From NCBI RefSeq assembly GCF_056746865.1, contig NZ_CM163382.1: a DNA stretch of 64,000 bases; one strand, 5' to 3'. A program made the translations under genes and the position numbers. Positions 26,421-26,919 of this stretch are shown here, piece by piece. The notes below the pieces were generated by a model, which did not search any database, had not been told where the DNA came from, and saw only the letters and a list, made by a program, of their open reading frames with translations. The stretch's first letter is position 1, and each line of letters begins with the position of its first letter.

Positions 26421-26919
26421 GTACAGCAAAAACAGCGATTTTCTTTATAAGGTATGTTTTGCTCATCTGGCAGACGGAGGTATTCGCTGCGGTTTGGCAC
26501 ATAGCCCAGAACAGGAAAGAGTTTTACGAGACTTTTGTAAAATCCAGTGTACAAGGGCGTGACGTTTTTGAAGGTGAGCACTACGAAATTTTCGTAGTTC
26601 AAAAAATAGCCTCTGAGATGTTGTTATGCCTGTTCAGCAAACCATCCGCATAGCTGATCGCGAATCAAATTACCAATGGAGCCAGAAGCAAGGGCAGAAC
26701 TGGAAAGCGCCTGCCATGAAGAGTAATGCGACACCATAAATATAGTTTTTAGAGTCCATAAAAAACCTGTCAAAACTTGACACACAGAACGATGCCACCA
26801 GCTACTGAGCGGTGGCATTTTCTTGTGCTATTCGTTTCACATTTTGCAATGAACATGATGAATATTGCGTTTTATGAAACTATAATAACTGTTGTTTTAT
26901 ACAGTTCTAAGGGGGCGTT

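Follow-up and report, generated by a model that had tools for sequence, protein, structure and literature searches.

We analyzed a stretch at positions 26440–26830 of a 64,000-nucleotide segment of contig NZ_CM163382.1 (RefSeq assembly GCF_056746865.1; the window hereafter). Rfam and Pfam searches of the window place the stretch inside an island resembling P4 and the phage-inducible chromosomal islands (PICIs). It holds a frameshifted fragment of an anti-repressor gene of the phage P1 Ant type, short conserved blocks with paralogues elsewhere in the island and a hairpin that we read as a transcription terminator. The left border is formed by an iteron cluster (26323–26426) of GGTACAGGTGG-type direct and inverted repeats (D1, I1–I4 and I8), which lies 3' of the genes of a P4-type primase operon, and a 53-amino-acid (aa) gene at 26920–27081 on the plus strand opens the downstream operon. 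RefSeq leaves the interval 26317–26920 blank in a chromosome that is 99.8% identical, and the open reading frames (ORFs) of the stretch are all short (84 aa from TTG on the plus strand; 103 aa from TTG and 64 aa from ATG on the minus strand) and begin at TTG or inside the hairpin. This bears out the earlier impression, formed from the letters alone, that the stretch lacks a convincing ORF: we found no credible one between 26317 and 26920, the protein search having covered the plus-strand relic translation and not the two minus-strand ORFs. At least 80% of the stretch is present in 448 of 5426 complete Escherichia coli genomes, at 94–100% identity and nearly always unannotated.

The largest component, at about 26497–26739 on the plus strand, corresponds to codons 28–90 or so of the N-terminal domain of a P1-Ant-like anti-repressor, fused to a short 3' tail that ends in AMKSNATP and a stop codon. 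A sensitive DNA search of phage genomes returned matches to 26560–26669 only, in genes of two Klebsiella phages and one Shewanella phage that are annotated as 'anti-repressor' or hypothetical. Translated searches (tblastn) recover RDVFEGEHYEIFVVQK in one frame and VVMPVQQTIRIADRES in the next, with a stop in between, and the two together correspond to ...KDELEGEHYEIFVVQK...VVMSIKQALRVAARES of the intact proteins; alignment at the DNA level reveals deletions of 9 nt and 1 nt relative to the intact genes, and weaker colinear similarity reaches back to about 26497. A residual 37-codon ORF within the relic (26626–26739) starts at the invariant internal methionine of the family. This family, phrog_1726 ('anti-repressor'), includes P1 ant1/ant2 (59% identity) and genes annotated Ant or 'Roi' in more than 100 Stx phages, and has relatives in Acinetobacter and Pseudomonas phages. 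Searching 5.8 billion proteins with the repaired translation yielded no intact protein with the arrangement of the relic, and the only hits were sporadic E. coli ORF calls running in from the iterons. In place of a reading frame of about 230–350 codons, about 60 codons are left, distributed between two frames and interrupted by an in-frame stop. Judged by these alignments, the region is a pseudogene fragment of an anti-repressor gene.

The sequence-only reading had pointed to a perfect palindrome at about 26582–26598, which is real although placed one base off: CTACGAAATTTTCGTAG occupies 26581–26597 and is the core of the inverted repeat ACTACGAAA-T-TTTCGTAGT at 26580–26598, with perfect 9-nt arms and one central base. 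The window contains 12 perfect inverted repeats whose arms measure 9 nt or more and whose loop is no longer than 5 nt, against 1.2 ± 0.8 in dinucleotide shuffles; since they are thus about ten times commoner than in shuffled DNA, a repeat of this size is rarely due to chance. As RNA, the palindrome alone forms a weak hairpin (−9 kcal/mol, z −2.1). We do not find it to be an operator or RNA element of this intergenic region: it consists of anti-repressor codons, encoding HYEIFVV in the relic (CAC TAC GAA ATT TTC GTA GTT), and sister islands possessing the terminator, the promoter and the operon lack it altogether. A second, imperfect inverted repeat, TTTTACGAGACTTTTGTAAAA at 26522–26542, contains two G.T pairs on the plus strand. 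By our own count it matches an FYETFVK-type version of the repeat of the family at 22 of 24 nt, whereas the colinear alignment reads this segment as a diverged VRNNDF motif.

At the right end of the stretch, the hairpin formerly located at about 26795–26825 is likewise present with a shift of one base. Its arms GCCACC and GGTGGC belong to GCCACCAGCTACTGAGCGGTGGC at 26794–26816, followed by the T-run ATTTTCTT at 26817–26824. The predicted intrinsic (Rho-independent) terminator spans 26792–26824 on the plus strand and comprises an 8-bp G+C-rich stem, in which 26792–26799 pairs with 26811–26818, a weak 3-bp upper helix and TTTTCTT. The plus-strand RNA folds with −20.1 kcal/mol (z = −3.66), a stability equaled by one of 200 shuffles. 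A pattern scan of the plus strand picked up no other terminator-like site from the primase operon to the start of the following gene, and the simple terminator pattern is not enriched, with 4 sites against 2.4 expected in 2 kb. The T-run reads TTTTTTT in 14 of 16 related copies, and in the sister islands L005 and L006 the annotated upstream coding sequences end 55–60 nt before the hairpin. A diverged island (L019) carries GGCCACC-TGAAAG-GGTGGC-TTTTTT, in which an identical stem encloses a different loop, equally far from the promoter. In a relative from Pantoea, a GC hairpin and T-run of unrelated sequence stand at the equivalent position. The most plausible reading of the hairpin is that of an intrinsic terminator serving the primase/replication operon and the cargo genes, with termination itself predicted from position and fold.

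Three further points concern the hairpin and its surroundings. In strain E8 (L007, 2853–3155, equivalent to window 26792–27094), RefSeq lists a 100-aa 'hypothetical protein' whose start ATG lies inside the terminator stem; the ATG comes into frame with the 53-aa gene because of one extra G in the Shine-Dalgarno G-run, and the call is probably an annotation artifact. A TGT-N12-ACA site at 26825–26842, of the type recognized by P2 Ogr and P4 Delta, was dropped, the ACA being ATA in nearly all relatives. A promoter using TTGACA (26777–26782) was also rejected, as no usable −10 follows it and its start site would fall inside the hairpin.

Comparison with sister islands indicates that the material between iterons and terminator is exchangeable. 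Where the window has the relic, L005 (OkiPb01692) carries an unrelated 152-aa gene and L006 (PT62) an unrelated 93-aa gene; in PK6 the slot is empty from the iterons to position 26766; an IMG/VR copy (L062) bears an IS3 insertion at about 26735; and about 320 genomes switch to another iteron type (GAACCAAC) at 26515–26522. All of these variants keep the hairpin, the dyad, the TATAAT hexamer and the CTGT-N8-ACAG box of the downstream control region described below, and the 53-aa gene, nearly unchanged. Because the relic can be swapped without touching the control region of the operon, it is unlikely to control that operon, and from these alignments it is rated as variable cargo. Related islands (L005, L006, L008 and L189) have different primases with different iterons (GGTACAGGTGG, GAACCAAC or TAGGGAT) at the same position; this pairing of primases with iteron families indicates an exchange of entire replication modules, for which one junction lies near 26515–26522.

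Relic and hairpin are bridged by a conserved non-coding block, GAAGAGTAATGCGACACCATAAA...GTTTTTAGAGTCCATAAAAAA (also …GAGTAATGCGACACCATAAA…GTTTTTAGAGTCCATAAAAAA), at 26718–26766, which is retained in L019, where it is non-coding too, and absent from PK6. The block is paralogous to window 20100–20178, directly 5' of the isrK/C4 promoter, and the island has two copies of the unit GAGTTTTYRGAGTCCATAAAAA(A) followed by a short palindrome, one 5' of the isrK/C4 promoter and one 5' of the terminator. The same unit also precedes a C4-like RNA in strain EC02 (L190, 2950–3075). The palindrome TGTCAA-AAC-TTGACA follows at 26768–26782 and takes the form TGTCA-N5-TGACA in most relatives; this motif likewise lies 5' of the C4-like RNA of EC02, and the palindrome may be what remains of a control site from an immunity region.

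Taken together, the observed homology and decay of the gene fragment, the variable cargo and the conserved, stably folding hairpin make it likely that the stretch is an anti-repressor relic joined to paralogous control blocks and an operon terminator, left by recombination in a cargo slot. Recombination would leave such a patchwork in the variable slot between the primase/iteron module and the next operon. The dead, frameshifted P1-Ant-type fragment would make up the first part (about 26497–26739) and the short blocks paralogous to the control region 5' of the island's isrK/C4 RNA the second (26718–26790). In the third (26792–26824), the terminator would stop transcription that enters from the primase operon and from any gene occupying the cargo slot, insulating the ejection-protein operon, which would start from its own promoter with its −10 at 26881–26886.

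Several observations speak against this explanation. Related islands, in which the sequence-only reading had suggested checking for covariation, keep the hairpin, but the substitutions found in its stem have no compensating partner (T>C at position 26794 in both L023 and L062; GGTGGC>GGCGGC in PK6), so that covariation within the close family lends it no support, and the 3-bp upper helix is broken in several copies of that family. The support for a terminator is position and thermodynamics, not covariation. Furthermore, conservation of the block even in L019 is not explained by relic status alone, and nucleotide diversity is 0.02–0.03 over the whole stretch compared with 0.07 in the adjoining 53-aa gene, which could reflect constraint or simply recent spread.

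The stretch itself is ordinary for such an island; the one lead worth specialist attention is the behavior of the palindrome in intact relatives of the relic. We examined 160 IMG/VR loci and nine GenBank phages (L109–L270 from IMG/VR, L271, which is P1 49021–49305, and L272–L278), the profile-based IMG/VR scan representing the best 80 of 442 relatives and the deep diversity being hand-sampled from GenBank phages. The codons for GE-x-Y-x-x-x-V-x form an inverted repeat with 8–11-bp arms whatever they encode, in P1, Stx, P22-like, APSE, Klebsiella, Salmonella and Acinetobacter phages. Its versions include CAC TAC GAA ATT TTC GTA GTG, CAC TAC ACA AAA AGT GTA GTG, ACC TAC ACA AAA AGT GTA GGT, TTT TAC GAA ACT TTC GTA AAA, GGT TAC AAA ACT TTT GTA ACC and, in Klebsiella pKp383 and Salmonella ST65, AAC TAC GAA AAT TTC GTA GTT. 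The arms are 9 nt and perfect in Acinetobacter NJ02 (ACTACGAAA-g-TTTCGTAGT) and APSE-7 (GACCTACAC-aaaaa-GTGTAGGTC) and contain one mismatch in P1 (TTTTACAC-AAAAA-GTGCAAAA); one Pseudomonas homologue has a weaker repeat and a second has none.

Paired substitutions alter the amino acids on both sides of the repeat (H..V, T..G, G..T, F..K and N..V). Among 18 distinct sequences, 93.8% of cells pair, as opposed to 30–48% with the partner slid; five of the nine pairs changed on both sides, and the covariation score was reached by none of 500 shuffles. The tyrosine codon is always TAC and valine is GTA wherever it is kept, P1 having alanine (GCA) at that position. The few G.T and A.C pairs do not discriminate between the strands, and Rfam returned no relevant match for the intact ant genes. 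The repeat in intact Ant genes is probably under selection at the nucleic-acid level, as an RNA hairpin or a symmetric DNA site, and the pattern suggests a DNA or RNA element within Ant-type genes that has not been described. An inverted repeat preserved at the cost of protein changes in P1 ant and its relatives would mean that a classic immunity circuit contains an unrecognized regulatory site, be it an intragenic operator or a structured RNA. The Roi protein of phage HK022, an Ant/KilA-related regulator, reportedly binds a site inside its own gene; this is a precedent for a cis site within such a coding sequence but offers an analogy only: Roi has a different, Rha-like N-terminal domain, and when roi was checked as an equivalent carrier, no palindrome was present at the corresponding position.

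The promoter region of the downstream operon (26834–26906) lies outside the stretch under study. The dyad GTTTCA-N5-TGCAAT-N13-ATTGCG-N5-TGAAAC (26834–26880), a putative operator, consists of two 17-bp sites that abut the −10 hexamer TATAAT (26881–26886, plus strand, with no −35 hexamer); its hexamers are conserved in E. coli, Pantoea, Pectobacterium and IMG/VR loci and its N13 spacer is variable. Directly 3' of TATAAT, a LexA-box-like CTGT-N8-ACAG with an A/T-rich spacer, CTGTTGTTTTATACAG, occupies 26889–26904, and both the −10 and this box are invariant in 16 of 16 E. coli-type copies. Sites of the form CTGT-N8-ACAG occur three times in the 64 kb, against 0.8 expected. The first protein of the operon has no sequence match in Pfam, PHROG or PDB, and a scan of genome contigs with it returned three loci. 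Its structural model (pLDDT 85) has an extended N-terminus and two helices, and the best PDB fold match, the ribbon-helix-helix (RHH) domain of PutA, is weak (E 0.68, TM 0.52–0.58). We infer that the promoter may be controlled by LexA, through the candidate box, and/or by the 53-aa protein; the LexA-controlled operon I of the staphylococcal SaPI islands is a parallel. Two side observations belong here. The architecture RTTKCA-N5-TGCAAY-N13-ATTKCR-N5-TGAAAY also occurs about 430 bp 5' of lambdoid-phage isrK/C4-Rha modules and in a third context, with instances in L071 (PhiR26_1, about 6065–6112) and in many of the IMG/VR loci L011–L070. A second site of the LexA-box type, CTGTATATAAACACAG, lies at 35581–35596 with an A/T-rich spacer, 34 bp upstream of an ORF at 35630–36466.

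The stretch had been proposed to encode a small regulatory RNA. In its most specific form, such an RNA would comprise the last 70–130 nt before the terminator, be processed from the 3' untranslated region of the primase operon or start near TATAGT, and act in trans. Its 5' part would be A-rich, followed by the TGTCAA/TTGACA hairpin and the U-tailed hairpin of the terminator. This would fit the folding of 26750–26830 (81 nt) into two hairpins (−27.7 kcal/mol, z −4.8), the conservation of the 26718–26766 blocks in the diverged L019 and the nature of the stretch as a 500-nt untranslated tail ending in a terminator. However, no sigma-70 promoter-like site was detected at 25500–27500; the sole plausible −10, TATAGT at 26741–26746, has no −35; and PK6 lacks everything to the left of 26766, this −10 included, and still has the hairpin. 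Rfam 15 gave no match in the stretch, either at the gathering threshold over the whole window or at E ≤ 10 on 26300–26950, and thereby also excluded Esr41 and the other small RNAs of E. coli islands. The blocks are more simply explained as paralogues of 20100–20178, and we regard a small RNA as improbable. Poorer still are the prospects of a small hydrophobic peptide (MDSKNYIYGVALLF...), for example a type I toxin, read from 26759 downward on the minus strand. Its first 14 codons are conserved and a 9-nt indel in L019 preserves the frame. In four islands, however, the peptide would measure 28, 16, 23 and 30 aa, PK6 does not have the ORF, an IS3 interrupts it in L062, reading from the paralogous start of EC02 ends after 18 codons, and no Shine-Dalgarno sequence precedes it. 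In view of the variable length (16–30 codons), the absence or interruption in some islands and the early stop in EC02, we rejected this mini-ORF as a gene and consider the peptide highly improbable.

Two further proposals assign a regulatory role to elements that do exist. The hairpin could be a regulated terminator, at which an antiterminator or RNA supplied by the helper phage or the island lets transcription of the replication operon reach the ejection-protein operon. Its position directly between two co-directional operons and the presence of a C4-type antisense RNA in the island would suit this, C4-type antisense RNA in P4 acting by premature termination. The terminator half of the suggestion stands, as a plus-strand site just 5' of the next promoter. 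The regulatory half is in our view an improbable addition, because a −10, a dyad and a LexA-like box, all conserved in several genera, give the downstream operon a promoter of its own; because the complementarity to C4 lies at 20445, away from the hairpin; and because inspection by eye of the sequence and of the folds of both strands showed no antiterminator pairing and no nut-like element, although no dedicated search was run. RNA-based immunity of the P4 kind, the model for that suggestion, finds no support in the stretch, the island's isrK and C4 module being located at 20219–20407 with its best local C4 complement at 20445. Alternatively, the island might retain the palindrome of the dead gene on purpose, as a still-working copy of a cis-element (a protein-binding site or RNA hairpin) that it would use as a decoy or sensor for the anti-repressor circuit of the helper phage. 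Compensatory changes do uphold the inverted repeat in intact genes, and it is perfect in nearly all relic copies despite the broken frame. Diversity in the palindrome (0.016) is nevertheless not clearly below that in the rest of the relic (0.029), a comparison without statistical power, one copy (L078) has a C>T change in an arm, and the region is otherwise the same in sister islands that have no relic. With diversity not clearly reduced and relic-free islands known, we consider a retained function in the window unlikely and give it little weight next to a decaying relic in a cargo slot.

Window 20219–20460 holds the isrK and C4 RNA genes of the immunity module in tandem, and a 10-nt exact C4 complement, CGTTATCGGA, lies beside the C4 gene at 20445, overlapping GGAGG. 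The site is as expected for a P1-type C4 target at which translation of the next gene would be blocked, a call based on exact k-mer complementarity only. Other C4 complements of 9–10 nt lie at 16400 and at 31957–34935, including 10-mers at 33407 and 34935; 26440–26830 contains no exact complement of at least 9 nt, and 26300–26950 has no match to the C4 or isrK models even at E ≤ 10. An RNA-duplex scan of C4 and isrK against 19000–33000 gave noisy energies and nothing notable in the stretch, and a match at 28185 was set aside as a G-rich artifact.

In the island, the integrase gene (14334–15677) comes first and is followed by the int-alpA RNA (15686; Rfam), the isrK and C4 antisense RNAs (20219–20407; Rfam), the primase gene (22829–25183) and two small genes before the iterons. 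After the 53-aa gene, the downstream operon continues on the plus strand with DUF2824, P22 gp7, gp20 (Inj_translocase) and a gp16-like 908-aa SLT protein. P22-type ejection proteins are thus encoded at 27098–32266 by an island with a P4-type primase and integrase, and the part of the island that was examined contains no capsid or terminase genes. This composition suggests a satellite of P22-like podoviruses that brings its own ejection proteins. Elsewhere in the window, RNA elements include STnc490 (12357–12480, 146 bits), JUMPstart (4154–4192) and tRNA-Sec (selC, 55407–55501); since selC sits 40 kb from the island integrase, the island is not inserted there.

Each component of the stretch can be set beside a known system. 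The relic aligns with the ant1/ant2 genes of the P1 immI region and with the Ant/'Roi' genes of Stx and P22-like phages along ...CGE..VRNNDF...DELEGE.Y..FV...M.IKQALRVAARES, where identity within the core motif reaches 81%, and differs from the intact genes in lacking a start codon and the C-terminal domain and in carrying frameshifts and a stop. The antisense immunity of P4 (CI RNA) and P1 (C4) has its counterpart in the same island, and the block at 26718–26766 is paralogous to DNA directly upstream of that module, whereas 26440–26830 shows neither a C4 or isrK match nor notable pairing with C4. In its G+C-rich stem and T-run, its position at the end of a co-directional block and the next promoter directly 3', the hairpin resembles the Rho-independent terminators found between operons of phages and satellites. 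It differs from them in being a prediction and in that its left arm and loop share sequence with an EC02 stretch that forms no hairpin there, a match that makes the terminator appear to have been assembled by recombination.

The island as a whole is closest to the EcCIMP1-type islands of E. coli, which carry an integrase, AlpA, an anti-repressor, an Ash-family protein, a P4-type primase and a poorly understood 'packaging' module, EcCIMP1 being mobilized by a P22-like helper phage (PMC11773190). Its layout is like that of EcCIMP1, and the sister island of PT62 shares PerC and M41-peptidase genes 3' of the same promoter (PMC11773190). The words 'ejection' and 'injection' are absent from the main text on EcCIMP1 (PMC11773190), and the module that follows the primase in the window island encodes P22-type ejection proteins (DUF2824, gp7, gp20 and gp16-like). 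For annotation, the 600-bp gap left blank by RefSeq in about 450 E. coli genomes could be labeled as an anti-repressor pseudogene fragment followed by the predicted terminator of the replication operon, with the control region of the ejection-protein operon beginning at 26834. On the comparison of sister islands, the slot between iterons and terminator is a hotspot of recombination and cargo exchange in EcCIMP1-like islands.

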